DNA of 64,000 nucleotides from an uncultured beta proteobacterium. GTDB taxonomy: Bacteria; Pseudomonadota; Gammaproteobacteria; Burkholderiales; Burkholderiaceae_C. How positions within the stretch are numbered: position 1 is the first letter of the stretch; every line of letters begins with the position of its first letter. The stretch covers positions 3,785 to 67,784 of the forward strand of contig CAIKVZ010000293.1 of NCBI GenBank assembly GCA_903830985.1, written 5' to 3'. A program made the translations under genes and the position numbers. Of this stretch, positions 10,028-28,405 are shown in pieces. The notes below the pieces were generated by a model that did not search any database, had not been told where the DNA came from, and saw nothing but the letters and a program-made list of their open reading frames with translations.

Positions 10028-10894
10028 ATGTCGTCACCCAATCTGCATCCCATGCTCAACGTGGCCGTCAAGGCCGCACGCGCCGCCGGCGCCATCATCA
10101 ACCGCGCCGCGCTGGATGTGGAAGCGGTGCGCATTTCGCAAAAGCAGCTCAACGATTTCGTCACCGAAGTCGATCACGCCAGCGAAAAAGTCATCATCGA
10201 GACCATGCTCACGGCCTATCCCGGTCACGGCATCCTGGCCGAAGAGTCGGGCTCCGAGCACGGCGCCAAGGATTCCGAATGCGTGTGGATCATCGATCCG
10301 CTGGACGGCACAACCAACTTCATCCATGGACTGCCGGTGTACTGCGTGAGCATTGCGCTGGCGGTGCGCGGCAAGGTCGAGCAGGCGGTGATTTACGACC
10401 CGACGCGCAACGACCTGTTCACCGCCACCAAGGGCCGCGGCGCCTACCTCAACGACCGGCGCCTGCGCGTTTCCAAGCGCACCCGGCTGAGCGAGTGCCT
10501 GCTGTCCACGGGCTTTCCATTTCGTCCTGGCGACAACCTCAAGAGCTACCTGAACCTGATGGGTGAAGTGATGCAGGCCAGCGCAGGCTTGCGCCGCCCC
10601 GGTGCCGCAGCGCTGGACCTGGCCTATGTGGCTGCCGGCTATACCGACGGCTTCTTCGAGAAGGGTTTGCAGCCCTGGGACGTGGCAGCAGGGTCGCTGC
10701 TGGTCACCGAAGCCGGTGGCCTGGTCGGCAACTTCACCGGTGAAGCGGTGTTTCTGGACCAGCAGGAATGCATGGCCGCCAGCCCGAAGATCTACGGCCA
10801 GATGGTGCCGCTGCTGGGCAAGTACAGCAAGTTCGCCAGCGCCGGCGAAAAGGCCCAGGTGCGTCAGGCTGGCAACGAAGCCGCGCAATCCTGA
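10028..10894 (+). CDS. suhB: Inositol monophosphatase family protein (SuhB)
   Basis: 288-aa ORF with [44 protein letters not shown]. Confidence 0.9.
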
Positions 10895-13764
10895 AGCAGG
10901 CGCAACAACTCGGCCTCGGGCGCGGGTCGCCCAAACAGATAGCCCTGGTAAGACTGGCAGCCCAGGGCCTGCAAAAATTCACGCTGCCCCTGGGTCTCCA
11001 CGCCTTCGGCCACCACATCCAGACCCAGGCTGTGCGCCAAGGTCACGATGGTGCGCGCAATGGCCGCAGCGTTGTTGTCGGTGAGCACATTGCAGACAAA
11101 GGAGCGGTCGATCTTGAGTTGCTCCAACGGCAGGCGGTTCAGATAGGCCAGGGACGAATAGCCGGTGCCGAAATCGTCCAGCGCAAATCCCACGCCGTGG
11201 CGCTTGAGGGCCGCCATCTTCTCGATGATGTCCTCCACGTCATTGAGCAGCAGGCTCTCGGTCAGCTCCAGTTTGAGCCGGGACGCCGGCGCGCGGGTCT
11301 GCTCCAGCACGGACAGCACCTGCGTGGCAAAGTCGTCCTGGCGGATCTGCGCGGCGCTCACGTTCACCGCCAGGTGCAGGTGCGCGGTGCGCGCGTCCTG
11401 CGACCAGACGGCAAGGCGCTCGCAGGCCAGTTGCAGCACGCGCTGGCCCAGCGGCAGGATCAGACCGGTCTGCTCGGCCACGCCAATGAAGTCTCCCGGC
11501 ATCACCATGGCGCGCTGCGCCGGCTGCCAGCGCACCAGCGCTTCAGCACCCACCAGTCGCGCGTCGTGGTCCACCACCGGCTGAAAGTGCAGCAGCAGTT
11601 CGTCGCGCTGCAAGGCCACGCGCAAGTCGGCTTCGACCTGCACCCGCTCGGACACCGAGCGCTGCATCGCCGGGTCGAAAAAACGCAAGGTGTTGCGACC
11701 TGCCGACTTGGACTGGTACATCGCCAGATCGGCCTGCTTGAGCAACTCCTCCACGCTGTGCGGACCACCGTCAAACAGCGTCACGCCGATGCTGGGCGAG
11801 CTCAGGTGCAGCTTGCCCCCCACATGAAACGGCGCGTGAAAGGCGCCAAGAATTTTGTCGCCCACAGCCTGCGCATGCAGCGTGGCTTCCGCCGGGACCG
11901 CGCTCAGACCTTCGACCATGACGATGAACTCGTCGCCACCCAGACGCGACACGGTGTCAATGGCGCGGACACACTGACACAGTCGCAGCGCCACCTGACG
12001 CAGCAATTCGTCGCCGATGTCGTGCCCCATGGTGTCGTTGAGCGTCTTGAAATTGTCCAGATCGATGAATAGCAGCGCGCCCTGGGTCTGGTGCCGTTGT
12101 GCCGATTCCAGCGCCTTGCCCAGGCGGTCCAGCATCAGGCGCCGGTTCGGCAAGGTCGTGAGCGGATCGTAGAACGCCAGGCTGAGCGTGGCCTGCTCGG
12201 CCAGCTTGCGTTCGGTGATGTTTTGACCGACACCACGGTAGCCGCAGAACGTACCGTCGCCGGCAAAGATCGGCAGTCCGCTGATCGACACCCAGTAAGG
12301 CGCACCCTTACCATCGAGTCGATGTAACTCCAGATGACGAAAGTCCTGATGGGCACGCAGCACGTCATGGTGTTCCTCCCAGTCGAGTTCGTTCATGTTG
12401 AGCGCCCCCAGGGCCCAGCGCGTCATGCCGATCACTTCGAGTTGGGGCATGCCGGCCTTGTGCGCATCAAAGCCGTCAAAGCGCACGAAGCGAAACTGCT
12501 CGTCCATCTCCCAATACCAGTCCGAAGACAGTTGGGTCAGGCCGCGAAACCGCTCTTCGCTGGCGCTCAAGGCCTGTTTGGTTTCGAAATAATCGGTCAC
12601 ATCGGAGAATGTGCGCACCCAGCCGCCGTCGGCCACGATCTTGCTCTTGACTTCGAGAAAGCGCCCGCTGCGCGTCTTGCGCCAGTAGTTCACCGGCAAG
12701 TCCGTCTTGCTCAGTGCGCCATGCTGAAATTCTGCCGCCAGGTGCTGGCGCACGCCGGGAAAGGCCAGGCTGTACTCCTCGCCGAAGTCGCCGCGGTCGC
12801 GCTGCAGCTGAAAGACCTCGCGAATATTCGGGTTTCGCGCCATCAACTCGACCGGCAGCTCCAGCAACTCGCACAGCCGCTGGTTGTAGTGCAGCACCGT
12901 GCCGTCCGCGGCGATGCGCAAGATGCCCTGGGAGATGCTGGCCATGGACAGCTCCAGCAGCTGCGACTTGTGCGCCAGCTGCTGCGCTGCCACGCGCAAT
13001 TGTTCTTCCGCCTTGTGCGCATAGGACACATCCATCACCGTGCCGCAAACGCGCAGCGGCTCACCCTGCGCGTCGCACTGCACGACGCGGCCGTGGCTGA
13101 GCACCCAGACCCAGTGGCCGAGCTTGTGGCGCACGCGGTACTCCCAGCGCAGCAGGCTGGCAGGGCCCAGACTCCCTGCCGCAGCCAGCAGATGCGGCAA
13201 GTCCTCGGGGTGGATGCGCTGCTGCAACAGGGTGGAGTTCCAGACCAACTCATCAGGGGCAAAGCCCAGCATGGCGCAGGCGCGGTCGCTCAGTGCCAGG
13301 GCGCCGCTGTCCTGCCAGCGCTCCCACCAGCCCATGTCGGCGTGGGTCAGTGCCAGATCGAGACGTTCGCTGATGTCTTGCAGCCGAGCCGTGGTCTGGG
13401 AGCGCAGCATGGCGGCCTGCACCTGCGCGGCCAGCATGGCCAGCCAGGCGCCAGCGGGGTCGATCAGCACGTAATCGGTAAAGCCCTCGGACAAGGCGCG
13501 CGACGCCGCAAACTCCTGTCCCGGGCTGATGCAGATCAGCGTGGGCGCCAAACCCAGAACGTCGCACAGATCGAAGGCGTTGCCGTCGACCAGCTTGTAG
13601 CGCACCAGCACGACGTCAAAGCTGCCCTGTGCCAGTGCTTGCTGCGCCTGGGATACGCCCGAAGCGGTTTCCACATGCCAGGCCAAGCCCTGATCCGCCA
13701 CGGCCGCTGTCAGCGCCTGGGCGCAGTGGACCTCACTCTCAACGAGCAACAGGGCGATGGACAT
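10864..13764 (-). CDS. Multidomain c-di-GMP protein: degenerate receiver, three PAS-like regions, GGDEF, EAL
   Basis: 966-aa ORF. GGDEF block [16 protein letters not shown] includes an RxxD I-site 5 residues upstream. EAL blocks [23 protein letters not shown]. Confidence 0.9.
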
Positions 13765-14657: not shown

Positions 14658-15872
14658 TCAGCGTTCGTTCAACAGCGTCAGCGGGTCCAGCCGGTACGCC
14701 GCCCAGGTGGGCAGCAGCGCCGCCAGCAGCGCCACGCCCCCAGCCAGCACCGGCACCGCCCATTCTCCCTCGACCCAGGTCCAGCCGGTGACCGAGAGGG
14801 ATTGTTGCCCTTGCAGCAACAAGCCTATCAGTCCGGTCAGGGCGTGGCCTGCCAGCATGCCCAACAGCGATGCCAGCAGCGCCAGCCACAGCGCCTCGCA
14901 CAGCAGCAGCGCAGCGACCCGCCTGCGCGGCGCGCCCAGCATGCGCAGCATGGCAAGATCGGCGCGGCGCTCCCGCACGGCATTCCACAGGGCGATGAAC
15001 ACGCTCACCGCGGCTGTCAGCAACAGCACCGCGCCAAAGCCGCGCAGCACCTCCGTGCCCACGCCCACCATGTGCAGCAGCCGGGTGATTTCCACCGCCG
15101 GCGCCGCCGCCTGCATGTTGGTGCTGCTGTTGACATAGCGCGGAAAACTCACCGCCGCCATCGGACTTTTGTAGCGGATCAGCGCCAGGGTGATCTCGCG
15201 CTCAGCTTCCAGCGCCGCGAGGTCCTCGGCGTCCAGCGGTGTGTCACCTTCGTAGGCCTTTTCATGCACCTGCCAGACTGATTCGGTGGCCGTCAGCACC
15301 AGGCGGTCGAGCACGCAGGCGCAGGGCTTGAGCACGCCGCGCACCCGGTACGGGTTGTCGCCATGGCTGTGGCCGCCGGCCCCCAGACCGTGCGTGCCGA
15401 CAAACCGCTGTCCGATCTGCAAGCCCGTGGCCAGCGCCACCTGCGTGCCGATCACCACCTGCATGGGCTGGTTCCAGAGTTCTCCCACGTCCAATTCAGC
15501 GCCGTAGTGCGTGATGTAGTCGGTCGTGGTGCCGACGATGCGAAAGCCGCGAAAGCTGTCGCCCAGGCTCAGCGGAATCAGTTCGGCAACCTGCGGGTTC
15601 TTTTGCAGTTCGCGGACCTCGGACAAGGCAATATTTCCCGGCGGCACGTCAAGGTGAAAAACCCCGGCCAGGATCAGCTGCATCGGGCTGCCCTTGGCGC
15701 CGACGACCAGGTCGATGCCCGCCAGGTCGCGCTCAAAGGCGTGGTCGATCTGTTCGCGCGTGAGCAGCACCATGGTGATGGACGCCAGGCCCAGCGCCAG
15801 CAGCAACAGGTTCAGCGCTGCGGCCAGCGGACGCGACCACAGGTAGCGAAAGGACAAAGCCAGCGTCTTCAT
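14658..15872 (-). CDS. ABC transporter permease, FtsX/MacB-like
   Basis: 404-aa ORF with an N-terminal TM, a large periplasmic loop and three C-terminal TM helices (layout of FtsX-type permeases). Its 4-nt overlap with the ATPase gene suggests coupling. Confidence 0.85.
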   Translation of the reverse strand: MKTLALSFRYLWSRPLAAALNLLLLALGLASITMVLLTREQIDHAFERDLAGIDLVVGAKGSPMQLILAGVFHLDVPPGNIALSEVRELQKNPQVAELIPLSLGDSFRGFRIVGTTTDYITHYGAELDVGELWNQPMQVVIGTQVALATGLQIGQRFVGTHGLGAGGHSHGDNPYRVRGVLKPCACVLDRLVLTATESVWQVHEKAYEGDTPLDAEDLAALEAEREITLALIRYKSPMAAVSFPRYVNSSTNMQAAAPAVEITRLLHMVGVGTEVLRGFGAVLLLTAAVSVFIALWNAVRERRADLAMLRMLGAPRRRVAALLLCEALWLALLASLLGMLAGHALTGLIGLLLQGQQSLSVTGWTWVEGEWAVPVLAGGVALLAALLPTWAAYRLDPLTLLNER

Positions 15873-16534
15873 GCGGCCACCGCCTCTTGCGTTGCGGCCT
15901 GGCTCAGGCGCAGTGTCAGCGCCTGCGGCAGCGCCGCAGCAACGCGGGCGTCGTGCGTGGCGATCACCAGCGTGGCGTTGCAGCGGGCAGCGCTGTCTTG
16001 CAGCAGCTTGACGGCCAGGGCTGCGGCCTCGTCGTCCAGGCTGGCCGTGGGTTCGTCCGCCAGGATCACCATGGGATGGAGCAACACGGCGCGCGCCAGC
16101 GCGACGCGCTGCGCCTGCCCGCCGGACAGCTGCTGCGGTCGGCGCTGCGCCAGATCGGCCACGCCCAGGGCTTGCAGCGCACGGTTGATTTCCCAGCGGT
16201 CCGGTGGCAAGCCAGCGGCAAAATAGACCAGGCCCAGGTTGTCCTGCACGTTCAAGGCACCGGTGAGGTGCAGCCTCTGCGGCAAAAAGCCCAGCTTGCG
16301 GGCACGCCAGGCGTCACGCGCTGCACCACCGATGGCCATCAAATCCTGTCCGGCCACGCTGATCGTGCCGCCGGCCGCGCTCAACAAGCCCGCGGCGAGC
16401 GCCAGCCAGGTCGACTTGCCGCTGCCCGAATTGCCGCGCAGCAGCAAGGTGGCGCCCTGCGGCAGGTCGACGTCGGGAAATAACAAGGGAGTGCCCTTGG
16501 GGTAACGGTAGCTCAGGGCTTGGGTGCGGATCAT
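15869..16534 (-). CDS. ABC transporter ATP-binding protein
   Basis: 221-aa ORF with Walker A GNSGSGKST, signature LSGGQAQRVALARA and Walker B ILADEPT. Confidence 0.9.
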   Translation of the reverse strand: MIRTQALSYRYPKGTPLLFPDVDLPQGATLLLRGNSGSGKSTWLALAAGLLSAAGGTISVAGQDLMAIGGAARDAWRARKLGFLPQRLHLTGALNVQDNLGLVYFAAGLPPDRWEINRALQALGVADLAQRRPQQLSGGQAQRVALARAVLLHPMVILADEPTASLDDEAAALAVKLLQDSAARCNATLVIATHDARVAAALPQALTLRLSQAATQEAVAA

Positions 16535-17676: not shown

Positions 17677-19587
17677 ATGCACATACGTCATGGCCTGCTG
17701 ATACTTGGGACGCTGCTGTGCCTCATGACGCAGCACGCCTGGGCGCAGTCCGAGCCGCGGCTGGCGCTGCTGATTGGCAACTCGGCGTACCGGTCCTCAC
17801 CCCTGGCCAACCCGGTGAACGATGTGCGGCTCATGGAGAGCGCGCTCAAGGAAACCGGCTTCACCGTGATCAAGGCCGAAAACGCGTCGATACGCGAGAT
17901 GCGTCGACTGGTACGCGACTTTGGCGACAAGTTGAAGGCCTCGGGCGGCGTGGGACTGTTCTATTTCGCGGGCCACGGCGTGCAGGTGCGCGGCGAAAAT
18001 TATCTGGTCTCGACCGATTCGGACATCCGCAACGAGGACGAGGTGGCCGACGATTCGATCAATGCCAGCGTCATCCTGGAAAAGATGCAGGGCGCGGGCA
18101 ACCGCATGAACCTGATCGTGCTCGACGCCTGCCGCAACAACCCCTTCGCCGTGAAATCGCGCAGCGCCGCGTCGGGCCTGGCCACCATGAGCGCGCCCAG
18201 CGGCTCGCTCGTCGCCTACGCCACGGCGCCGGGTTCGGTGGCGTCGGACGGGAGCGGCAACAACGGCCTGTACACCCAGCATCTGGCCAAGGTGATTCGC
18301 CAACCGGGGCTGCCTGTGGAAGAGGTTTTCAAGCAGGTGCGCGCCGCCGTGCGCCGTGCCAGCAACAACCAGCAGACACCCTGGGAAAACACCGCGCTGG
18401 AGGGCCAGTTCTACTTCAAGGCGCCGCCGGTGCAGGCCGAAGCCTTGCCGGCACCGGTGGCCGCGCGCCCGCCGTCCAATGAACCGGCGACGCTGGAGCT
18501 GATGCTGTGGGAGAGCGCCAAGAGCGCGACCACTTTGGGTGAATTGCAGGCCTACCTGAACCGTTACCCGAACGGCTTTTTCGCCGACATGGCGAAGGCG
18601 CGCATGGCGGCGCTGGGCGGTGTCGCCAACGACAAGGCGGCCGCGGAAAGGATCGCCAATGAGCGGGCTGAGTCCCAGCGCGCTGCGGCCGAGCGCGACG
18701 CGCAGGCGGCCAGACTGAAGACCGCCAACGAGTTTGCCACGGCGCAAGCCAGCCGAAAGGACGCAGAGGAACGCGCAGCGGCAGGCGCGAAACTGCAGAC
18801 TGCCGCCGAGCGTGCCGCAACTGAAGCGAAGCTGAAATCTGCGTCGGATCGTGTTGCAAATGAGGAAGCTCAGGCGGCGCAACAGTCTGCTGCAGCTTTG
18901 GCATTGGCAGTCGACCAGTGGAGTTGGGAGAAAATTCGCTTCAGCCAGAACCGGACTGAACTCGAGGCCTACCTGATGCAATTCCCGGACGGAAGCTTTT
19001 CTGCAGTGGCTAGGAGCCGGTTGGCACAGCTTGGAGCGGCACCGGCAACGCTTGCGCCCGGTCCAGTGCAGGCAGCGGCACCGAAGGCGGGCGACGTGAT
19101 CGGCACGATGGTGCTGACGGATACGCTCACGGGAATCAAGAGCGAGCTGGAAGTCACCGTGCTTGAGGCCGATGCGCAGAAGATCATGTACTCGACGGGG
19201 GATGTGATTGGAAGGGACGGCAAGGTATTGCAGGTCCGTGTCGGAGAAGTTGTGCTGGAACTCTTGTCTGGATCACTGTGGACAGTGCCGATAAAGGCCG
19301 GAGCGTCGGGCGAGGCCACAGTTCGCACGGGGATTGCTGCGGGCAGCCAGAAGGGCGAGTTGCAATGGAAGACATTGGATGCAGGCAATGGCAAGATCCG
19401 CGTTGATTCGACTGTTCAATATAGGGTGACGAACTCTAACGGAATCACGAATTTGGGGTCTGGGAATTGGCTGGCAAGCTACGTCAGCGGCCAACCAATT
19501 CCTGAGTCTTTTTCCACGAATATCAGAGGCGGAGCGGCTGCCAACGCCATCTTCAATTTATTCACGGCCGAACTGAAATTTCATTGA
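17677..19587 (+). CDS. Exported caspase-fold (peptidase C14) protein A: signal peptide, C14 domain, helical motif, Ala/Glu/Arg coiled coil, second helical motif, beta-rich C-terminal domain
   Basis: 636-aa ORF with signal LLILGTLLCLMTQHAWA-QS. C14 blocks LALLIGNSAYRSSPLANPVNDV, FYFAGHG (His100), LIVLDACRNNPF (Cys152). Confidence 0.85.
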   Translation: MHIRHGLLILGTLLCLMTQHAWAQSEPRLALLIGNSAYRSSPLANPVNDVRLMESALKETGFTVIKAENASIREMRRLVRDFGDKLKASGGVGLFYFAGHGVQVRGENYLVSTDSDIRNEDEVADDSINASVILEKMQGAGNRMNLIVLDACRNNPFAVKSRSAASGLATMSAPSGSLVAYATAPGSVASDGSGNNGLYTQHLAKVIRQPGLPVEEVFKQVRAAVRRASNNQQTPWENTALEGQFYFKAPPVQAEALPAPVAARPPSNEPATLELMLWESAKSATTLGELQAYLNRYPNGFFADMAKARMAALGGVANDKAAAERIANERAESQRAAAERDAQAARLKTANEFATAQASRKDAEERAAAGAKLQTAAERAATEAKLKSASDRVANEEAQAAQQSAAALALAVDQWSWEKIRFSQNRTELEAYLMQFPDGSFSAVARSRLAQLGAAPATLAPGPVQAAAPKAGDVIGTMVLTDTLTGIKSELEVTVLEADAQKIMYSTGDVIGRDGKVLQVRVGEVVLELLSGSLWTVPIKAGASGEATVRTGIAAGSQKGELQWKTLDAGNGKIRVDSTVQYRVTNSNGITNLGSGNWLASYVSGQPIPESFSTNIRGGAAANAIFNLFTAELKFH

Positions 19588-19669: not shown

Positions 19670-20164
19670 ATGACGCCACATTACCCACAACGCCTGGCCT
19701 GGATCCTGGCGCTGTCCCTCTCCCTTCTGGCCTGCGCCTCCAGCCCCGATCCGCAGCCCCTCGCGCCGCCGCAGGCCGAACTGCAGTTCGTCGATCTTCA
19801 GGGCTTTGACCGCGATCTGAATGGTTCGCTCTCGGCGCCGCTGCCCCGGGTGGAAGTGGCTTTCTACGACCGCATTGTTCCCAGCGCCATGCCCGAGCGC
19901 CTGCAGCACTGGATGGCGGCCGTGGAAGCCGGCGGTGGCAAGGTCAGCATCATTCCCGTCAAACCGACAGTGACGGCGAAGAACCCGTTTCTGGTGATCA
20001 GCGCCATCAGCACGCTGTGGAGCGCCTCCAAAATGATGCGCGAGGCCAGCAGCGAGGCCAGGTTCAAGAGTGCGCAAACCTTTGACGCCGAAATCGTTCT
20101 CAAGCAGGACGCGCAGGGCGAATCCGTGGTGGACAAGGTGGTCTTCGTACAACGCAAAAAATAG
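19670..20164 (+). CDS. Lipoprotein, function unknown
   Basis: 164-aa ORF with lipobox ALSLSLLAC-ASS. I recognise no family motif. It is in the operon, 9 nt upstream of the OmpA-like gene. Confidence 0.7.
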   Translation: MTPHYPQRLAWILALSLSLLACASSPDPQPLAPPQAELQFVDLQGFDRDLNGSLSAPLPRVEVAFYDRIVPSAMPERLQHWMAAVEAGGGKVSIIPVKPTVTAKNPFLVISAISTLWSASKMMREASSEARFKSAQTFDAEIVLKQDAQGESVVDKVVFVQRKK

Positions 20165-20173
20165 GCGGGCCCG

Positions 20174-20686
20174 ATGCGACTCAGCATTCTCCCTGGACTG
20201 CTATGCCTGGCGGCGGCGGTAGCAGCCCTGGCGCAAACCGCCACGCCCAGCGCCGAGCAGATGGTCGAGCAGTTGCGCGCGGCGCCGCTGACCCGCAACC
20301 TCGCGGTGCAGGCGGTGGCCGGGTTGGCCGCAGCCGCACCGGCCAACCGCCCTTCGCTGTCGCTGCTGATCCAGTTCGACTTCGATTCGGCGCGCATCCG
20401 CAGCGAGAGCCAGGGCGCGTTGATGACGCTGGCGCAGGCCTTGCAGTCGCCTGAACTTCGCACCGTGCGCTTCGCTGTGGAAGGTCACACCGACGCCAAA
20501 GGCAGGGCCGACCACAACCAGCGCCTGAGCCAGCAGCGCGCTGAGGCGGTGCGCCAATTTCTCGGCGCCCAGGGCGTGGACGACACTCGCCTGCTGGCCG
20601 CAGGCATGGGATCGAGTCAACTGGCTGTCACCGGCCAGCCATACTCGGCCCTGAACCGGCGCGTGCGCATCGTCAATCTGCAGTAG
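20174..20686 (+). CDS. OmpA_C-like peptidoglycan-binding protein (short, no beta-barrel)
   Basis: 170-aa ORF with signal LCLAAAVAALA-QT. OmpA_C blocks FDFDSARIRSES, VEGHTDAKGRADHNQRLSQQRAEAV, NRRVRIV. Confidence 0.85.
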   Translation: MRLSILPGLLCLAAAVAALAQTATPSAEQMVEQLRAAPLTRNLAVQAVAGLAAAAPANRPSLSLLIQFDFDSARIRSESQGALMTLAQALQSPELRTVRFAVEGHTDAKGRADHNQRLSQQRAEAVRQFLGAQGVDDTRLLAAGMGSSQLAVTGQPYSALNRRVRIVNLQ

Positions 20687-20718: not shown

Positions 20719-22638
20719 ATGCATCACAGCATGACCCACCGCCATCAGTTGCACCGCAAACACTCGCCCCTCACCGTGGCAACAGCGCTGCTGTGCGCGT
20801 CCCTTGCGCTGCCAGGTCAGGCACAACCCGCAGCAACGGCCAAGGCGCCGCCAGGCGAGCGCAACCTGCAGGTGCAGGCGACAGCGCCTGTCGCCATCAA
20901 CAATGCGCAGCGCTTCGCCCTGGTGATCGGCAATTCGGATTACAGGGACGCCCCCTTGAGCAACCCGGTGAACGACGCGCGCGCCATCGCGGCAGCACTC
21001 AAGGAATCCGGATTTACCGTGATGTCGCGCGAAAACACCGACCAGCGCGGCATGCTGGCGGCGCTGCGTGAATTCGGCGACCACCTGCGCGCCGGTGGCA
21101 CCGGGCTGTTCTATTACGCCGGGCACGGCATGCAGATCAAGGGACGCAACTACCTGATCCCGGTGGGTGCGAACATCGAGCGCGAAGACGAAGTGGCCTA
21201 CAGCGCCGTCGACGCGCAGGCCGTGCTCGACAAGATGGAGGCGGCAGGCAACGTGGCCAACATCATGATCCTGGACGCCTGCCGCAACAACCCGTTCACG
21301 CGCAGCATGCGCTCCGGCCAGGCCGGCCTGGCGCAAATGGACGCGCCCGTGGGTACGCTCGTGGCCTACGCCACCTCGCCCGGCGCGGTGGCCAGCGACG
21401 GCGCCGGCGCCAATGGCCTGTACACGCAGCACCTGCTGACTGCCATCCGTGAGCCCGGCAACAAGGTGGAGGACGTGTTCAAGCAGGTGCGCGCCAATGT
21501 GCGGCGCGACTCGGCGGGCAAGCAAGTGCCCTGGGAATCCACTTCGCTGGAAGGCGACTTCTACTTCAAGCTAAGGCCCGCAACCGTGGCCCCGGTCGCA
21601 GTGGACCCGGCGCTGGCGCTGGAGTCCGCGCTGTGGGACGCGGTCAAGGACAGCAGCCTGCCGATCGAAGTTCGCGCCTATTTGAACCGCTACCCGAAGG
21701 GGCGTTTTGCAGAACAGGCGCAGGAGCGTTTGAAGCAACTCCAAGTGGCAGCCACGACCGCGACCGGCGCCGCAGTCCCGTTGGCAACAGACCAGGCCAA
21801 GGCCGAGGCCGCACGCAAGGCCAGTGCCGAACTCGCCAAAGCCGAGGCAATGCAGTTGGAGCAACGGACCAGGGCACAAGCCCAATTGGTGGTTGCGGCC
21901 GAGGTGGCACGGGCCAGGGACCAGGCAGCTGCCAGACAACGCAAGGACGAACAGTTGACCAGCCTGGCCAAGCCTGCGACGCCGCAAGTCGCAACAGCCG
22001 CGGCGCCGGTCAAACTCAGCCGGCCCCTGGCAGCCAGCAACAAGAATGGCTTCACCGTGGGAGACCGCTGGCGTTATCAGGTGGTAGACAAATTCAAGAA
22101 GGAAGTCGTGCGCAACTGGAGCCGCAAGGTCGACGCCGTCAACAGCGATGGCAGCCTGAAACTGAACGGGGGCACAGTGGATTGGGCGAGTGACGGTTCG
22201 ACCAAGGCAGCGCGTGGCGACGGGGGGTTCTTGCGCGAGTACTCGCCTGCAATGCCTTCGCAGCCGAGCAGTTTGAAGATCGGCTTCTCTGAACCAGTGA
22301 AGCTGACTTTGGCGTACCGCAACGCTGATGGCGTCAGCGGCACAGAGGAACTCGAGGGCACGATCACCGTGCTTGCCAAGGAAACGATCAAGGTGCCCGC
22401 AGGCGAATTTGAAACACTGAAAATCGAGTTATCTGTCACCACCAACGGCAAGAATTCAAGCTCTGGCACAGGCTACTACCAGAGAACCAAACAGGCCGCC
22501 TGGTACGTTCCCGCGCTGCGTAATTATGTCGCGTTGGAAGTCGAGGTGCGCAACCGAACCGGTCAGTTGCTGACTTTTGAGCGCAACGAGCTCACCAGCT
22601 TCTCGGTGCATGGCGCCGAACTGCTGGCGCAGCACTGA
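20719..22638 (+). CDS. Exported caspase-fold (peptidase C14) protein D, paralog of A with the same architecture
   Basis: 639-aa ORF with signal TVATALLCASLALPGQA-QP. C14 blocks FALVIGNSDYRDAPLSNPVNDA, FYYAGHG (His136), IMILDACRNNPF (Cys188). The start could be a few codons downstream (MTHRHQ). Confidence 0.85.
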   Translation: MHHSMTHRHQLHRKHSPLTVATALLCASLALPGQAQPAATAKAPPGERNLQVQATAPVAINNAQRFALVIGNSDYRDAPLSNPVNDARAIAAALKESGFTVMSRENTDQRGMLAALREFGDHLRAGGTGLFYYAGHGMQIKGRNYLIPVGANIEREDEVAYSAVDAQAVLDKMEAAGNVANIMILDACRNNPFTRSMRSGQAGLAQMDAPVGTLVAYATSPGAVASDGAGANGLYTQHLLTAIREPGNKVEDVFKQVRANVRRDSAGKQVPWESTSLEGDFYFKLRPATVAPVAVDPALALESALWDAVKDSSLPIEVRAYLNRYPKGRFAEQAQERLKQLQVAATTATGAAVPLATDQAKAEAARKASAELAKAEAMQLEQRTRAQAQLVVAAEVARARDQAAARQRKDEQLTSLAKPATPQVATAAAPVKLSRPLAASNKNGFTVGDRWRYQVVDKFKKEVVRNWSRKVDAVNSDGSLKLNGGTVDWASDGSTKAARGDGGFLREYSPAMPSQPSSLKIGFSEPVKLTLAYRNADGVSGTEELEGTITVLAKETIKVPAGEFETLKIELSVTTNGKNSSSGTGYYQRTKQAAWYVPALRNYVALEVEVRNRTGQLLTFERNELTSFSVHGAELLAQH

Positions 22639-22649
22639 GTCCCCGACAC

Positions 22650-24314
22650 ATGCAGTGGTGGCAATCTTTCACACGCCCCAGCGGCGCCTGGTCCACGGCG
22701 CGTGTCACCTGGGGCCTGGCCATGGCATTTTGCCTGTGGGCCGTGCTCGACCTGATGCTGCTGCAAGTCTCGGGAGGCCTGGGCAGCTCCACTTATGACA
22801 CCATGGTGCGCGCGCGCTTTTATGCCGCGCCGTCCGATCCGAGACTGGTGATTATCGACATCGACGAAGCCTCTCTGCTGCGCATGGCGCCGGAATTCGG
22901 CCGCTGGCCCTGGCCGCGCGACACCCTGGCCACGGTGCTCGACCATGTGGAAAAACAGCAGCCCCAGGCCATCATCTGGGATGTCCTGTTCAGCGACGCC
23001 GACCGCCTTTCGCCGGGAGGCGACCGCGCTTTTGACGAAGCCGCACGGCGCAGTGTGCACAGCCATTTTTCCGTGGTGCGCCTGCCCCAGGAATACGACG
23101 CACAAAGCCGGGTGACGCAGTCCACGCTGCCCAGCCTGTGGGACAGCGTGCCGGTCACGCCGGGAACCAGACCGTCCACGGTGGCGCTGATCGCACCGGT
23201 CCTGCCGGCAGTGGCCGCATCCCGATTGGGCTACAACAACGGCTATCCCGACGCCGACGGCGTGCTGCGCCGCTACCGTCTGGCGCAGACCCTGGCCGAC
23301 GGCAGCAGGATTCAGTCGCTGGCCCTGAGCGTGGCGCGCAGCCTGACGCCTGCCATTAGCCCCCCTGACGAACCGGCCAACGCGCTGATCCTGTGGCGCG
23401 CGCGCGCGAACCAGTACCCGCGTGTGCCTTTTGCCGACGTCTTTGCCGCCGCCGAGGGTGGCGTCCCTGGGCGCCCCCTGCCCAGCTTTGCCGGCAAGAT
23501 CGTGCTCATTGGCGCCACCGCGTCGAGCCTGCACGACATCCACCCCACGCCCTTGGTGGCGCAACAGGCCGGTGTCGACAGTCTGGCCACGGTCATCGAC
23601 AACGCCGTGAACCAGCGCCGCCTCATCGAACTGCCGCGCTGGCTTCAGGCCTTGCTGGCCATGGCACTGTGCCTGGGCATGGCGGCCTGGTCGCAACGCC
23701 AAGGGCTGGGTTCGCTCGACCCGGCCCTGTTCCTGCTGCCCGGAACGCTGCTGGGCGTGAGCTACCTGTCGCTCAATGCCGAGTGGTTTTGGCACAGCCC
23801 GGTCTTCCTCGACCTGCACCTGCCGGCTGGCATGGCTCTGCTCTACATGGCCTTGCTGCGCGGCTGGAACGGCCGGCACCGTGACCATTGGTGCGGCGAC
23901 GTCCCCGCCTGCGACGAAGTCCGGGGCGTGATGGCATTGGCATTGGAGCGTTCGGCCACCGGCATCGTGCTGGACGCTCTGCTGTTGGCCCTGCACCGGC
24001 ATGCGCCGCAATGTCGCTTGCTCGGGGGCGACGCCAGTGCCACCTGGCCGGCCCAAATGCGCTGGCCCGAGTTGCACCAGACCGTGGCCGTGGCCGGGCC
24101 GATGTCGCAGCTCCTTACCCTGCGTCAGGCCTTGCAGACCGCGCCGGACAGCGCGCGGCAATTGGGGCCCGTGGCGTGTGCGTTGCCGCTGCCCGTGCCG
24201 ACCCCTACCAGCCGCAGCGAATGGGCGCAGCACGCCCGCATCGCCTGCGCCCAACGCCCTTTCACAAGCCCACAGTCCAACCACGAAAGCCCGCATGTCG
24301 ACATCACCCTTTAA
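22650..24314 (+). CDS. CHASE2-domain membrane receptor with an about 150-aa cytoplasmic tail of no recognisable family
   Basis: 554-aa ORF with an N-terminal TM (WGLAMAFCLWAVLDLMLLQV). CHASE2 hallmark LVIIDIDEASLLRMAPEFGRWPWPRDTLATVLDHV...IIWDVLFSD. Three TM segments at about aa 331-405, then an orphan tail. Confidence 0.8.
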   Translation: MQWWQSFTRPSGAWSTARVTWGLAMAFCLWAVLDLMLLQVSGGLGSSTYDTMVRARFYAAPSDPRLVIIDIDEASLLRMAPEFGRWPWPRDTLATVLDHVEKQQPQAIIWDVLFSDADRLSPGGDRAFDEAARRSVHSHFSVVRLPQEYDAQSRVTQSTLPSLWDSVPVTPGTRPSTVALIAPVLPAVAASRLGYNNGYPDADGVLRRYRLAQTLADGSRIQSLALSVARSLTPAISPPDEPANALILWRARANQYPRVPFADVFAAAEGGVPGRPLPSFAGKIVLIGATASSLHDIHPTPLVAQQAGVDSLATVIDNAVNQRRLIELPRWLQALLAMALCLGMAAWSQRQGLGSLDPALFLLPGTLLGVSYLSLNAEWFWHSPVFLDLHLPAGMALLYMALLRGWNGRHRDHWCGDVPACDEVRGVMALALERSATGIVLDALLLALHRHAPQCRLLGGDASATWPAQMRWPELHQTVAVAGPMSQLLTLRQALQTAPDSARQLGPVACALPLPVPTPTSRSEWAQHARIACAQRPFTSPQSNHESPHVDITL

Positions 24315-26184
24315 ACCGCGCCTGGGCGCCATTGTGCTGGCAATGGCCGGCTTGCTCACGGCCGGAACCGCCGCTGCTCAGACCACAGCCACCTCACGCG
24401 CCACCGAACTGCGCGCCGACAAACTGGCCAGCGCGCCGATACTCGCGCCCCTGAGCGCGGGCGCCAGCCTGCGCCTGATCAGTCTGGAAGGCGGCTGGGC
24501 CTATGTGGAGCAGACCCTGCCTGCGGGGAGACAGGTGGGCTGGGTCCGTGCTTCGGCGCTGAACCTGCAGGCTGGCACCTCACTGGTTTCCAGCCAGGAC
24601 ACCGGACGCCAGGCCACGGGTGGTGGCGTCAACGCCGCCCTGACCCTGGGCGTGCGAAGCCTGCCGCCGCGGGTGAACCGGCATGCGTTGATCATCGGCA
24701 TCAGCCGTTACGCCGATCCGGCCACGCCACAGCTGCCGGGTGCGCGCATCGACAAGCAGTCGGCCACGCAGATGGCGCAAGCGATGCAGGTGCCAATGAG
24801 CAATATCCGCTATCTGCAGGACGAGCAGGCTACGGGCAAGGGAATCCGCCAGGCTCTGCAGGAGCTCAACGACCAGGTACAGGACGGGGACCGCGTGTTT
24901 ATTCATTTCTCGGGGCACGGCACGCGCTACAACGACCCGGCCGCTGGCGGCTGTGTCGAAGCCCTGCTGGCTTACGACGGCGGACAAAGCGGCGTCATCA
25001 CGAACCATGAAATGGCCGACCTGCTCAAGGGCATCACCAACAAGACCGACAAGCTGTTCGTCATGTACGACGCCTGCCATTCGGGCGGCGTGGTACAGGC
25101 CGCCAGCGCGGTGCGCACGCGCGGCCTGCTCAACAGCGACGACGAGGGCCTGCTGCGCCCCAAGTTCGCGGGCATTTCGCAAGAGTGCGGCCGTCCCGTC
25201 AACATCAAGTCACGCAATCTGGTGGTGGAAACGGCGGCTCAGGGCGCCCTGCCGCAAGACATCATCCACGTCAGCGCGTCGCGCGATAACGAGATCAGCT
25301 TTGACGATGAACTCAAGGGCGGACTGGCCACGCAGTTCATGCGCGACTGCATGCTGCGCGACGCGGTCGACCTGGACAACTCGGGCTCCATCAGCATGGA
25401 AGAGATCCGCCAGTGCGCCCAGGAGAAGATCAACAAGCGCATGGCGCACGACGTGAACTTCAAGCCGCACAACCTGGTGCTCAACGGCAACGCGGCCTTC
25501 GTTCCGTCCTGGTTCGGCCTGGCCAGCACCGCACCGGTGAGCGCCATCGCGGCGACGCTCCCGCCCACGGGGCAAGCTGCAACCAACACCGTGCAGCCTG
25601 CGCCCGTGGTGGCGGCACCGGTTACAACAGCGCCAGCGGTCGCGGCACCGCTCAGCGGCGCGCAGGCTTTGCAGCAGCTGTTCGAACAGCGCGACGCCAA
25701 GCGCCGTGTGCAACTCACCACAGCCAAGGACAAACTCAAGATCGGTCAGGACGCACTCGACCTGGCGGTGCAATCGGACCGCGCCGGCTACGTGTACGTG
25801 GCGCTGGCAGGATCGGACAACAAGTCGGTCTACCTGCTGTTCCCCAACGACCTGGACGCCAACAACCGGATCGAGGCGAACCAGCAACTGCTGCTGCCGC
25901 GACCGGCCTGGCGCGTCAAGGCCGCAGGACCGGTGGGTAAAGACCAACTGCTGGTGCTGGTTGCCGACGGCCCGCGCGACCTGCACGCGCTGGCCGCAGC
26001 CAAGGCCGGTCCCTTCGTCACCTCGCTGAACGACGCCCAGGGACGGGCCCAGTTGGGTGCCCTGCTGACGCGCTCCGCAACGGCGAATGGCGACAGCTGC
26101 AGCAGCCCCGCCGCGCGAAAGAAGAACCCGCAATGCTCCGACGCCTATGGCGCGGCCATGTTGACAGTAGAGGAGACAAAATGA
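24295..26184 (+). CDS. Exported SH3-like + metacaspase-like (C14) + EF-hand loop + DUF4384-like protein F
   Basis: In-frame part of track ORF 24001..26184. The ATG at 24295 gives MSTSPFKPRLGAIVLAMAGLLTAGTAAA-QT. Further blocks: SH3_3-like LRLISLEGGWAYVEQ...VGWVRASAL, IHFSGHG (His208), VMYDACHSGG (Cys261), DLDNSGSISMEE, and DUF4384-like GYVYVALAGSDNKSVYLLFPND. Overlaps the CHASE2 gene by 20 nt. Confidence 0.8.
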   Translation: MSTSPFKPRLGAIVLAMAGLLTAGTAAAQTTATSRATELRADKLASAPILAPLSAGASLRLISLEGGWAYVEQTLPAGRQVGWVRASALNLQAGTSLVSSQDTGRQATGGGVNAALTLGVRSLPPRVNRHALIIGISRYADPATPQLPGARIDKQSATQMAQAMQVPMSNIRYLQDEQATGKGIRQALQELNDQVQDGDRVFIHFSGHGTRYNDPAAGGCVEALLAYDGGQSGVITNHEMADLLKGITNKTDKLFVMYDACHSGGVVQAASAVRTRGLLNSDDEGLLRPKFAGISQECGRPVNIKSRNLVVETAAQGALPQDIIHVSASRDNEISFDDELKGGLATQFMRDCMLRDAVDLDNSGSISMEEIRQCAQEKINKRMAHDVNFKPHNLVLNGNAAFVPSWFGLASTAPVSAIAATLPPTGQAATNTVQPAPVVAAPVTTAPAVAAPLSGAQALQQLFEQRDAKRRVQLTTAKDKLKIGQDALDLAVQSDRAGYVYVALAGSDNKSVYLLFPNDLDANNRIEANQQLLLPRPAWRVKAAGPVGKDQLLVLVADGPRDLHALAAAKAGPFVTSLNDAQGRAQLGALLTRSATANGDSCSSPAARKKNPQCSDAYGAAMLTVEETK

Positions 26185-26663
26185 TTACGCATCGCACAAT
26201 TTTCTTTGGTTCACTCATCGGCCTGCTTACCTTATCGGCGCAGGCACAGGGCGGCCGCGGCCTGGCGGAAAACTGGCTGATCAGCCCGGCCGAGGCGCTG
26301 CAGTATCAGGGCGAGGAAGCGTTCAACGAGCCGCCGGCCCTGCGGCCCCGCGCGGTCATGCCGGTCATCGACATCCTGCGGCCCGAACCCGTGCCCGACC
26401 TGAAGGTGAAGGCGCCCTTCGCCATCGCCGTGCAGTTCCGGGCCCAGTCCGACGCAGCCATTGACCCGGCCAGCTTCAAGGTGTTTTACGGCGCCTTCAA
26501 ACTCGATATCACCGGTCGCATCACGACGCACGTGAAGGTCTCAGCCGATGGATTCACGCTGGACAACGCCCGCATCCCCGTGGGCAAACACCGTCTGACC
26601 TTGCACATCGAGGACGAAAAACAACGCGTCGCCGAGCGCGAGTTGCGCGTGGAAGTGGAGTGA
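26181..26663 (+). CDS. Small secreted protein, function unknown (last gene of the caspase operon)
   Basis: In-frame part of track ORF 26133..26663. ATG at 26181 overlaps the upstream stop (ATGA). Signal FFGSLIGLLTLSAQA-QG. The mature part is beta-strand-like (KVKAPFAIAVQF, FKLDITGRITTHVKV, HRLTLHIED). Confidence 0.65.
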   Translation: MITHRTIFFGSLIGLLTLSAQAQGGRGLAENWLISPAEALQYQGEEAFNEPPALRPRAVMPVIDILRPEPVPDLKVKAPFAIAVQFRAQSDAAIDPASFKVFYGAFKLDITGRITTHVKVSADGFTLDNARIPVGKHRLTLHIEDEKQRVAERELRVEVE

Positions 26664-26709: not shown

Positions 26710-27261
26710 CTACCTGGCAAGTCGGGCAAAGGTCTTGCGGAACTTCGCCACCTTGGGTCCGGCCACGGCCATGCAATAACCCTGGTTCGGGTTTTTCGCG
26801 AAGAAGTCCTGGTGGTAGTCCTCGGCCGCGAAGTAGTGCGCCAGCGGCAGCACCTCGGTCACGATGGGGCGGGTGCTGGCCGGGTCGCCTTGCAATTCGG
26901 CGATCACTGCGCGCGCCACCGCCTCCTGCTCGGGCGTCGAGAAGTAAATGCCGCTACGGTACTGCGTTCCCGCGTCGTTGCCCTGGCGGTTCAGCGTCGT
27001 CGGGTCGTGGATCAGAAAGAAGATCTCCAGGATTTCGCGCAGGCTGATCTGTGCCGGGTCAAAGCGCAGCTGCACCACCTCGTTGCAACCGGTGCGGCCC
27101 GTGCAGACCTGCTCGTAGCTCGGCGCCGTGCCCTGGCCATTGCAGTAGCCGCTTTGCACGTCGTCCACGCCCTTGACGCCGACGAACACGGCATCAAGGC
27201 ACCAGAAGCAGCCTCCGCCGAGCGTGATGGTTTCCAGATTGGTGGTCATGGTGACGTCCAA
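26710..27261 (-). CDS. msrA: Peptide-methionine (S)-S-oxide reductase
   Basis: 183-aa ORF with active-site block TLGGGCFWCLDAVF and the later block YHQDFFAKNP. The start may be the second Met (MTTNLE). Confidence 0.9.
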   Translation of the reverse strand: MDVTMTTNLETITLGGGCFWCLDAVFVGVKGVDDVQSGYCNGQGTAPSYEQVCTGRTGCNEVVQLRFDPAQISLREILEIFFLIHDPTTLNRQGNDAGTQYRSGIYFSTPEQEAVARAVIAELQGDPASTRPIVTEVLPLAHYFAAEDYHQDFFAKNPNQGYCMAVAGPKVAKFRKTFARLAR

Positions 27262-27361
27262 AAATTGAAGGAGACGGCATTGTCGGGGCGATGGCGGATT
27301 CGCGTTGAAACTTCAGCAATCCCTGCGTTGCCATAACGGCCATGGGATACTGGCCACCGCC

Positions 27362-28405
27362 ATGATCACCTACTACAACGAACTCCACGCCCTGCACCAG
27401 GGCAGGCTGGAAATGTTCCGCGGTGCGCTCGTTCCCTGTTTTGAAGTGCCGGCGCGCGTTGACCATGTGCGCGACGAATTGCTGCGCCGCGGGGGCGGCA
27501 CGCTGACGCCCAAGGCATTCCCCGACAGCGCGCTGCTCGGCGTGCACAGCGCGCGCTACCTGGATTTTCTGCAGCACGCTTGGGACGACTGGCTGGCGCT
27601 GGATCCGGCAAACGCCGGGCGCGACGCCCTGCCCTCGGTCTGGCCGATACGCGGCATGCGCAGCGACTTTTTACCGGACAACTTTTCCGCCCGCATGGGC
27701 CTGTTTTCCTTTGACGCGGGCACGCCGCTGACCAGCGGCACCTGGGCGGCGGCACGCGCCGGCGCCGACTGCGCGCTGAGTGCGGCGCACAGCGTGCTGC
27801 ACGGCGAGCGCGCAGCTTTTGCCCTGACGCGTCCGCCCGGCCACCACGCGGGGGCGGACTTCTTTGGCGGCTACTGCTTCCTGAACAACGCCGCGCTGGC
27901 GGCGCAGTCGCTGTGCGACGCAGGCCTGCAGCGCGTGGCCGTGCTGGACCTGGACTACCACCACGGCAACGGCACTCAGTCCATCTTCTATGAACGTGCT
28001 GACGTGTTCTTTGCCAGTGTGCACGGCGACCCGCGCACCGAATACCCCTTCTACTTGGGCCACGCGGACGAGACCGGCGCCGGCGCGGGGCTGGGCTGCA
28101 ATTTGAACCTCCCATTGGCGCGGGGCAGCGACTTTGTCACCTGGTCCGCCGCACTCGAACATGCTCTTGAAAAAATAGCAGCCTTCGGCGCCGACGCGCT
28201 CGTGGTTTCGCTCGGTCTGGACACCTTTGCCGGCGACCCGATCTCCGGCTTCAGCTTGCAAAGCGCCGACTACCTGCGGGTGGGCCAGCGCCTGGCCGCG
28301 GCAGGACTGCCCACGGTGCTGGTGTTCGAGGGCGGTTACGCCGTGGCCGAAGTCGGCGTGAACGCCGTCAATGTGCTCGAGGGCTTCGACACGATCAGTC
28401 CTTGA
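27362..28405 (+). CDS. Histone deacetylase-family (arginase-fold) deacetylase, acetylpolyamine amidohydrolase-like
   Basis: Track ORF 27305..28405 with the start moved to MITYYNE (ATG at 27362). Blocks RPPGHHAG, GYCFLNNAA, DLDYHHGNGTQ, SLGLDTFAGDP. Confidence 0.85.
   Translation: MITYYNELHALHQGRLEMFRGALVPCFEVPARVDHVRDELLRRGGGTLTPKAFPDSALLGVHSARYLDFLQHAWDDWLALDPANAGRDALPSVWPIRGMRSDFLPDNFSARMGLFSFDAGTPLTSGTWAAARAGADCALSAAHSVLHGERAAFALTRPPGHHAGADFFGGYCFLNNAALAAQSLCDAGLQRVAVLDLDYHHGNGTQSIFYERADVFFASVHGDPRTEYPFYLGHADETGAGAGLGCNLNLPLARGSDFVTWSAALEHALEKIAAFGADALVVSLGLDTFAGDPISGFSLQSADYLRVGQRLAAAGLPTVLVFEGGYAVAEVGVNAVNVLEGFDTISP

Follow-up and report, generated by a model that had tools for sequence, protein, structure and literature searches.

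Metacaspases are known as calcium-dependent proteases. To our knowledge this dependence has been mapped only to an aspartate (Asp) cluster in the p20 part of the eukaryotic enzymes, and we know of almost nothing on the functions of bacterial metacaspases. A gene in the 64,000-nucleotide stretch of DNA analyzed here (hereafter the window; contig CAIKVZ010000293.1, from an uncultured beta proteobacterium) raises the question of what calcium could do for a member of this fold that is predicted to be exported. The open reading frame (ORF) at positions 24295-26184 of the + strand encodes a 629-residue protein for which an initial annotation, made from the sequence, had proposed a signal peptide, an SH3 segment, a C14 protease domain, an EF-hand loop, a linker and a DUF4384 domain, in this order, and the function of a calcium-gated, cell-wall-docked protease. 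The order was borne out by Pfam, by the SH3 matches of orthologs and by an AlphaFold2 (AF2) model. The reading of its function that we favor, with confidence somewhat above even, is that the p10 lobe needs Ca2+ at an EF-hand located within the protease fold, together with disulfides, to attain a stable and active form, and that the protein is an exported, probably peptidoglycan-associated protease of the metacaspase type.

Relatives were collected by a HMMER search of 1.84 billion cluster representatives, which returned 10,047 matches. The best 150 of these are 32-63% identical to the protease, and 122 near-full-length representatives drawn from them (about 32-63% identical) make up the family alignment to which all counts out of 122 refer. 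The AF2 model was built from 50 input sequences and reached a mean predicted local distance difference test score (pLDDT) of 78 and a predicted template modeling score (pTM) of 0.78. The features of the gene, in window coordinates, are the following.

24295-26184, + strand: gene for an exported SH3b / C14 metacaspase-like / DUF4384 protein (ORF, translation, homologs)
24295-24381, + strand: Sec-type signal peptide, residues 1-29, ending in ...TAAAQ (sequence features; AF2 helix 9-22)
24379-24552, + strand: SH3b domain, residues 29-86 (ortholog profile matches, AF2 strands 29-85, Foldseek)
24679-25488, + strand: C14 caspase/metacaspase fold, residues 129-398, comprising p20-like part, linker and p10-like part (Pfam, AF2, Foldseek)
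24916-24918, + strand: predicted catalytic His208 (SGHG), aligned with the metacaspase catalytic His; 112 of 122 relatives
25075-25077, + strand: predicted catalytic Cys261 (DACHSGG), aligned with the metacaspase catalytic Cys; 111 of 122 relatives
25090-25254, + strand: flexible p20-p10 linker, residues 266-320, a candidate autoprocessing region carrying Cys298 (pLDDT 51-73)
25324-25362, + strand: entering helix of the EF-hand, p10 helix alpha4, residues 344-356, with Cys352 at 25348-25350 (DSSP on the AF2 model)
25369-25404, + strand: 12-residue EF-hand loop DLDNSGSISMEE, with D359, D361, S363, G364, I366 and E370 (DNA read, PS00018)
25396-25440, + strand: exiting helix of the EF-hand, p10 helix alpha5, residues 368-382, with Cys374 at 25414-25416 (DSSP on the AF2 model)
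25507-25650, + strand: Pro/Ala/Thr/Val-rich disordered linker, residues 405-452 (low pLDDT, variable length)
25738-25965, + strand: DUF4384 beta-sandwich, residues 482-557 (PF14326, AF2 beta strands)
25966-26181, + strand: C-terminal extension with the Cys602/Cys614 pair and a CSDAYGAA...EE tail (invariant among orthologs)

The EF-hand loop and its position in the fold

The loop is encoded by bases 25369-25404 (gac ctg gac aac tcg ggc tcc atc agc atg gaa gag), and residues 359-371 match the PROSITE pattern PS00018 exactly, which is the sole match in the six-frame translation of the window. Only 30 of 20,000 shuffles of the protein (0.15%) produced such a match by chance. The Pfam EF-hand models recognize the same region (residues 356-376, E 2-5e-4) below their thresholds, with 21.3 versus 25.4 bits for EF-hand_1, 20.5 versus 25 for EF-hand_6 and 19.8 versus 25.9 for EF-hand_5. 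Comparison of a 45-residue segment holding the loop with the sequences of the PDB gave 68 matches at E values up to 10; the best 60 of these all derive from Ca-binding EF-hand proteins, including loops of CDPK, centrin, obelin and calmodulin. EF-hand 1 of calcineurin B (DLDNSGSLSVEE), also among the PDB matches, is identical at the ligand positions and shares 10 of the 12 residues. No second EF-hand was detected in the protease, which has one PS00018 match and one stretch matched by the Pfam models.

In the AF2 model, where this region has pLDDT values of 84-90, loop 357-367 connects helix 344-356 to helix 368-382, after which comes the final strand of the caspase sheet (394-398). The exit helix is predicted to begin at position 10 of the loop, as in canonical EF-hands. 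Comparison with Yca1 identified the two helices as those of the p10 lobe that are joined by a short turn in the yeast enzyme. The initial annotation had placed the EF-hand as a module fused after the C14 domain. A separate fused domain is ruled out by the secondary-structure map, in which the loop joins helices 344-356 and 368-382 inside C14, and the question of whether the loop packs on the p10-like lobe, raised at the same time, is answered by the model in the sense that the loop is part of that lobe. As modeled, the EF-hand is a remodeled internal connection of the protease fold. The first p10 helix starts directly after the S1-pocket loop 329-343, which contains D337, G342 and G343, and, from what is known of caspase topology, the alpha4-alpha5 connection and the active site presumably occupy opposite ends of the domain.

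Conservation of the loop and of four cysteines

The loop had been described as a canonical EF-hand, a description that the initial annotation would have given up had orthologs shown no conservation of it. The divergent relatives agree with the description, since 111 of the 122 representatives keep the loop complete. Conservation is concentrated on the ligand positions, the glycine and the hydrophobic residue of the EF-hand consensus: D359 at position 1 (115 of 122), D361 at position 3 (D in 91 and N in 24), S363 at position 5 (107, plus D or N in 8), G364 at position 6 (117), I366 at position 8 (I, L or V in 113) and E370 at position 12 (116). Positions 2, 4, 7, 10 and 11 (residues 360, 362, 365, 368 and 369) are freely variable. 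When the 272 columns of the domain are ranked by conservation, G364 comes 11th, E370 15th and D359 16th, all of them above H208 and C261. Such a pattern is what selection on metal ligands leaves behind, and a generic surface loop would not show it. Close orthologs (65-85% identity) conserve the entire loop region and so carry little information on selection within it. Because conservation is ligand-specific and EF-hand 1 of calcineurin B has the same residues at the ligand positions, we strongly infer that the loop binds Ca2+. The loop is lost and the catalytic dyad kept in the representatives P0216-P0218, P0264, P0182 and P0200.

No residues of the protease domain are better conserved than four of its cysteines. 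C352 and C374, each present in 121 of 122 representatives, rank first among its columns, and C220 (24952-24954) and C298 (25186-25188) come next with 119 each. C352 lies seven residues before position 1 of the loop and C374 four after position 12. Representative P0220 lacks both C220 and C298, and P0268 lacks both C352 and C374. Given these paired losses and the signal peptide found across the family, the simplest reading is that of two disulfides, 220-298 and 352-374, and C352 and C374 are probably disulfide-bonded. A 352-374 bond would staple both EF helices, and a 220-298 bond would anchor the p20-p10 linker on that loop of p20 at which the eukaryotic enzymes bind Ca. Such conserved cysteines would suit an oxidizing compartment.

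Eight representatives (P0126, P0158, P0164, P0171, P0180, P0201, P0232 and P0269) are predicted dead enzymes, in which H208 is replaced by Y or P and C261 by G or A, and these keep the EF ligands and all four cysteines. The retention of the loop in such relatives suggests that it serves the folding or stability of the module and not only the control of catalysis.

The protease domain

The C14 assignment is supported by sequence and by fold. Pfam Peptidase_C14 (PF00656) matches residues 129-358 with an E value of 1.6e-21 and 77.5 bits (cut-off 21.4), and pLDDT is about 90 across the C14 core. Foldseek returned metacaspases, a paracaspase and caspases with a probability of 1.00, headed by AtMC9 and AtMC4 and followed by MALT1, GSU0716 and caspases. 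The solved structures closest by sequence are likewise metacaspases, namely AtMC4, Yca1, CgMCA-I, AtMC9 and TbMCA2. H208 and C261 align with the catalytic residues of AtMC4 and Yca1. D153, D259 and D337 occupy the acidic positions of the S1 pocket and are kept in 119, 120 and 100 of the 122 relatives, respectively; HVSASRDNEISFDD aligns to MLSGSKDNQTSAD of Yca1, which places D337 opposite the Asp of the "TSAD" motif of the yeast enzyme. The dyad, these acidic residues and the nearest neighbors by sequence and fold agree with the metacaspase flavor noted in the initial annotation. From the fold and the intact dyad we consider it on balance probable that the protein is a metacaspase-type cysteine protease (family C14 of clan CD). 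Since D153, D259 and D337 are conserved family-wide, its expected specificity is cleavage after Arg or Lys.

Neither the N-terminal prodomain of type I metacaspases nor the long linker of type II enzymes is present: the N-terminus consists of signal peptide and SH3b, and the linker between p20 and p10 has about 55 residues. Basic residues of this linker are conserved, with R274 in 110, K290 in 99 (plus 18 with R) and R307 in 104 of the 122 representatives. By analogy with metacaspase maturation, R274, K290 and R307 are possible sites of self-cleavage.

The calcium site of the eukaryotic enzymes is not intact in this protein. The Ca/Sm ligands of CgMCA-I are D198, D214, D215 and D245, which correspond to D173, D189, D190 and D220 of TbMCA2 (PMC9622860). 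In alignments with Yca1 and CgMCA-I, whose numbering was checked by H182 falling opposite H208 and residue 259 opposite residue 282, these positions are occupied by V221, N237, H238 and Q268. Acidic residues occur there in 11, 41, 19 and 11 of the 122 relatives, respectively, and none of the 122 has acidic residues at all four. As judged from the alignments, the family combines a degraded classical Ca site with a new and strongly conserved one.

Export signal, SH3b, DUF4384 and C-terminal tail

In the N-terminal segment MSTSPFKPRLGAIVLAMAGLLTAGTAAAQ, read by eye, a basic n-region precedes a hydrophobic core and an AAA-Q site, and there is no lipobox Cys. A comparable basic and hydrophobic N-terminal segment is found in all aligned members of the family, and the protease is predicted to be exported by the Sec pathway. 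It is followed by an all-beta module at residues 29-85 of the AF2 model, which Foldseek superposes on the SH3b domains of phage endolysins with a root-mean-square deviation of 1.3-2.5 A (about 65 columns). Searched with the sequence of the protein itself, SH3 profiles match below threshold (SH3_16, E 0.052), and SH3_3, SH3_16 or SH3_4 matches occur in 10-12 of 19 orthologs (best E 2.3e-8). Among the family representatives, only about 30 of 122 carry SH3b.

After the C14 domain, residues 408-446 of the linker have pLDDT below 50, and the linker differs in length between orthologs. The DUF4384 match (PF14326, residues 482-557) has an E value of 1.6e-13 and 50.9 bits (cut-off 27), and this domain is present in 114 of the 122 representatives. 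In the C-terminal extension, the columns of Cys602 and Cys614 are gapped or occupied by other residues in many divergent members, which may in part be an artefact of the alignment end.

Gene, family and operon

The start codon of the protease gene is the same Met at which the orthologs begin, and it gives a 20-nt overlap with the end of the upstream CHASE2 gene. A longer reading from the ATG at 24001 was rejected, as it would pass through the CHASE2 gene and the orthologs begin at the Met of 24295. At the other end, the stop codon overlaps the start of the next gene as ATGA, preceded by a GAGGAG ribosome-binding site. With its start overlapping the CHASE2 stop and its stop overlapping the next start, the protease gene is located mid-operon. 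A scan for promoters and terminators between 16.4 and 27.4 kb gave nothing above shuffled sequence, so the boundaries of the operon rest on overlaps and synteny only. The genes of the cluster and its surroundings are the following.

10864-13764 and 14658-16534, - strand: PAS-GGDEF-EAL protein and MacB/FtsX-type ABC transporter pair (ordinary neighbors)
17677-19587, + strand: C14 paralog A, DACRNNPF type (Pfam C14, E 3.4e-42)
19670-20164, + strand: predicted lipoprotein of 164 residues with an LLAC lipobox (sequence; often heads the cluster)
20174-20686, + strand: OmpA_C-type peptidoglycan-binding protein (Pfam OmpA, E 1.4e-20; NCBIfam Pal-, YiaD- and YfiB-like)
20719-22638, + strand: C14 paralog B, DACRNNPF type, without EF loop and without DUF4384 (Pfam C14, E 4e-41)
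22650-24314, + strand: CHASE2 membrane protein (Pfam CHASE2, E 5e-48)
26181-26663, + strand: exported protein of 160 residues, translationally coupled to the protease (ATGA overlap, GAGGAG site, synteny in most loci)
26710-27261, - strand: MsrA, methionine sulfoxide reductase (ordinary neighbor)
27305-28405, + strand: histone-deacetylase-family enzyme (ordinary neighbor)

On the + strand of the window the order is thus C14 paralog A, lipoprotein, OmpA_C, C14 paralog B, CHASE2, protease and the 160-residue exported protein. The surrounding genes are ordinary, and the cluster resembles neither a mobile nor a defence island.

More than 1,000 homologs of the protease exist in databases under the names 'caspase family protein' or 'DUF4384 domain-containing protein', and the gene shows vertical conservation throughout Comamonadaceae (60-85% identity). 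When 185,579 species genomes were scanned, 348 loci encoding relatives were identified, and genomic context was examined in the best 80 of them. Most of these 80 belong to Comamonadaceae (including Polaromonas, Rhodoferax, Limnohabitans, Curvibacter, Variovorax and Ramlibacter) or to unclassified metagenome-assembled genomes (MAGs) of Betaproteobacteria/Burkholderiales, and two bins are labelled Cytophagales and Synechococcus. When neighbors were searched with tblastn, the order [lipoprotein] - OmpA - [paralog B] - CHASE2 - protease - small protein was recovered in most loci that were long enough. The lipoprotein, which has no family match in Pfam or NCBIfam, is encoded ahead of OmpA in roughly one in three related loci, and some of the genomes carry paralog B as an insertion between the genes for OmpA and CHASE2. 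An OmpA gene lies upstream of the protease or CHASE2 gene in nearly all loci. CHASE2 is syntenic with the protease in most Comamonadaceae loci and is missing from those of Duganella and a Burkholderiales MAG (46-47% identity), where the OmpA gene is immediately upstream of the protease. Housekeeping genes adjoin the cluster in Variovorax terrae (ATP synthase and lipoate synthesis) and in Duganella (gyrA). The C-terminal 155 residues of the CHASE2 protein, on the cytoplasmic side, have no Pfam match even at an E value of 10, and a degenerate cyclase-like region considered there was dropped for the same reason.

The initial annotation had set the protease apart from two paralogs of an ACRNNPF type, and the alignments agree: paralogs A and B align only with the N-terminal p20 part of the protease, paralog B at 29% identity over 82 residues. 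An origin of the three caspase genes as recent paralogs is ruled out, as only these 82 residues align. Both paralogs are exported proteins with a long Ala/Glu/Gln-rich center, a repeated '...YL.RYP.G.FA..A...' motif and a weak DUF3108-like C-terminal domain, and two related loci (L066 and L077) have four or five paralogs of the DACRNNPF type in a row. In a gammaproteobacterial group at 37% identity the neighbors are a DUF4384 protein and a protein of 1,085 residues. In two loci of this branch (L084, 8575-9570; L086, 7575-8522) the protease is followed by a stand-alone DUF4384 protein, by the 1,085-residue protein, which has no known domain, and by proteins of about 227 residues (two in L084 and one in L086), with a TPR-CHAT protein nearby.

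The small downstream protein has no family in Pfam or NCBIfam, and its 472 homologs are all annotated as "hypothetical". In its model a signal helix is followed by a segment of low confidence and, at residues 62-159, by an Ig-like sandwich, for which fold searches gave only generic resemblance to CopC, FnIII, PKD and Ig-like domains. Since these matches are generic, a known protease-inhibitor fold cannot be claimed for it. The low-confidence N-terminal segment seems to be disordered and is nonetheless highly conserved, with invariant P52, L54, R55 and R57 ("PALRPRA"). Because the protease is predicted to be specific for Arg or Lys and the two genes are translationally coupled, we hypothesize that this segment is a candidate cleavage or bait site, or an inhibitor site, for the protease.

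The role of calcium

If the reading that we favor is correct, the connection between the two p10 helices was turned into a single canonical EF-hand loop bracketed by C352 and C374. This loop would bind Ca2+ when the protein reaches the Ca-containing, oxidizing periplasm, and the ion would lock the p10 lobe, which supplies D337 and the substrate loops, in its folded and active shape. Calcium would then be a structural or maturation cofactor that yields a Ca-dependent enzyme, not an on/off switch, and the EF-hand would stand in for the Asp-cluster site of the eukaryotic proteins. Exported proteins commonly use Ca sites of this kind as structural cofactors. Since the loop persists in predicted dead relatives and the signal peptide marks the protein for export, a structural or fold-on-export role appears at least as likely as gating. 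SH3b and the co-transcribed OmpA_C-type protein would probably hold the enzyme at peptidoglycan, and residence in the envelope with cell-wall docking is plausible because of the SH3b fold and of the OmpA_C-type gene found immediately upstream across Burkholderiales. The DUF4384 module would probably bind a partner or substrate, and the best candidates for substrate or inhibitor would be the operon partners, above all the Ig-like protein with its ...ALRPRA... linker.

Several observations weigh against this reading. The EF-hand is unpaired and its Pfam scores are under the gathering thresholds; single EF-hands can show low affinity or take other cations. A few lineages have lost the loop and keep the dyad, so that it is not indispensable and, as judged from the alignment, can be dispensed with by the fold in some lineages. 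E222 and E239, which neighbor the former Asp-cluster positions, are conserved and may be a remnant of the old Ca site. The proposed cysteine pairing rests on two cases of co-loss, one of them in a poorly aligned sequence; about three quarters of the family representatives lack SH3b; and the open-access full-text literature yielded no description of the family.

The unpaired state of the loop, its sub-threshold scores, its place in a fold that is not an EF-hand and its loss in some lineages would also suit a look-alike that does not bind Ca2+ and whose residues serve turn geometry, another cation such as Mg2+ or a protein contact. We regard such a look-alike as improbable: conservation falls exactly on the Ca ligands 1, 3, 5 and 12, on Gly6 and on the hydrophobic position 8, while the residues between them vary, and a Ca-binding loop of solved structure has identical residues at its ligand positions. 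In addition, loops of the DxDxDG type are said to bind Ca in many contexts other than EF-hands, as reportedly described by Rigden and Galperin in 2004. If Ca2+ is bound, it could still act as a regulatory signal: the enzyme would wait at the cell wall in an inactive form until a rise of periplasmic or external Ca (for example, upon envelope damage or environmental change) filled the EF-hand and triggered autoprocessing and activity, in the manner of eukaryotic metacaspases of types I and II. This is the gating proposed initially, for which the strong conservation of the EF-hand, the flexible p20-p10 linker with its conserved R274, K290 and R307 and the sensory context suggested by the neighboring CHASE2 protein can be cited. 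The periplasm equilibrates with the medium through porins, and the site would consequently be occupied continuously unless its affinity were tuned near ambient Ca. Moreover, known caspase topology puts the loop at the end of the fold that is remote from the active site, and predicted dead enzymes retain it. Eukaryotic metacaspases are activated by Ca and mature by Ca-dependent self-cleavage (PMC9622860), but the Asp-cluster site behind this activation is not intact here; the analogy on which the initial annotation drew holds only loosely and does not extend to the site that mediates it. We therefore consider a calcium gate rather unlikely, and the label "Ca-gated" gives way to a structural role as the preferred description, in line with the common use of structural Ca in exported proteins.

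The EF-hand might also be incidental. The protein would then act as effector in a module for cell death or phage defence at the envelope, made up of several caspase-like genes together with OmpA/MotB-like and sensor proteins. Three C14 genes lie within 9 kb, four or five caspase paralogs or CHAT proteins occur near some related loci, a generic 'caspase' model of PADLOC matches, and the OmpA protein weakly resembles ZorB/MotB. On the other hand, the PADLOC matches are generic domains and not system calls, the surroundings in the two loci of contig scale (Variovorax terrae and Duganella) are housekeeping, and the vertical conservation across Comamonadaceae is unlike that of patchy defence islands. 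We give this explanation little credence, and assignment to a specific defence system was dropped, as NCBIfam and PADLOC gave only generic caspase and OmpA/MotB matches. An extension of the structural reading to an undescribed envelope cascade for signaling or quality control is similarly speculative and has a low probability in our judgment. The Ca site would have shifted out of the Asp cluster of p20 and into an EF-hand of p10 stapled by a disulfide, the enzyme, held at the peptidoglycan by SH3b and the OmpA-like partner, would cleave the invariant ...ALR-P-R-A... segment of the Ig-like protein, and the released conserved N-terminal peptide or the trimmed Ig domain would be read by the CHASE2 protein, which has no recognizable output domain.

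What is new here is an uncharacterised, predictedly exported C14 family with a conserved EF-hand in its p10 lobe; the C14 fold and the EF-hand type were known already. The family counts more than 1,000 proteins, with relatives in at least 348 species-level genomes. An independent solution for Ca in the same fold would provide a natural experiment on how Ca is coupled to the activity of caspase folds. The compact and conserved operon names concrete partners and points to a role in the envelope rather than in cytoplasmic cell death, and its importance would rise if it proved to be a proteolytic signaling pathway of the envelope.

Comparison with known systems

Surveys of bacterial metacaspases and orthocaspases (Asplund-Samuelsson 2012, PMC3501461; Klemencic 2019, PMC6426788) describe C14 proteins with signal peptides and combinations of DUF4384 with C14, and list an 'EF-hand motif' as an extra feature of 7 archaeal orthocaspases. 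OmpA genes in 14 metacaspase operons and a fusion of CHASE2 with a metacaspase in Trichodesmium have also been reported (PMC3501461). Both surveys list domains only and hold nothing on this family, on the position of an EF loop in the p10 lobe and its conservation, on the cysteine pairs or on the four-gene operon. In the open-access full-text literature we found no earlier case of an EF-hand inside a C14 fold.

Among the closest known systems are the eukaryotic type I metacaspases (Yca1, CgMCA-I and TbMCA2; C14B), which give the best matches by sequence and structure and with which the protease shares the fold, the SGHG and DxCHSG motifs, the p10 motif 'S-A/G-S-x-D-N-E/Q-x-S-x-D' with the S1 residue D337 aligned to the Asp of the Yca1 SAD motif, the acidic S1 residues D153 and D259 and a flexible, basic linker between the lobes. 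Unlike these enzymes, it has a signal peptide and SH3b in place of a Pro/Gln-rich or zinc-finger prodomain, its four-Asp Ca site is replaced, its alpha4-alpha5 connection is an EF-hand loop, and it carries four conserved cysteines and a C-terminal DUF4384. Among bacterial proteins of the caspase fold, GSU0716 of Geobacter sulfurreducens (PDB 3BIJ) is similar by structure and by profile (Foldseek E 1e-10, target-normalised TM-score 0.65, profile E 1e-14), but it has neither SH3b nor DUF4384, and the profile alignment stops before the EF region.

With regard to the loop itself, the protease resembles calcineurin B, calmodulin, CDPK and centrin in having 12 residues, of which 1, 3, 5 and 12 are the ligand positions, 6 is Gly and 8 is hydrophobic, and in having flanking helices. 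It differs from them in having a single hand, formed by helices of a protease fold and flanked by a Cys pair, with Pfam scores below threshold. A further parallel may be found in exported bacterial proteins: the periplasmic galactose-binding protein and the lytic transglycosylase Slt35 reportedly each hold a single EF-like (DxDxDG) loop in an unrelated fold, where Ca is said to be stabilizing. The protease likewise has one EF-like loop in a protein predicted to be exported, and the fold that hosts the loop is a different one.

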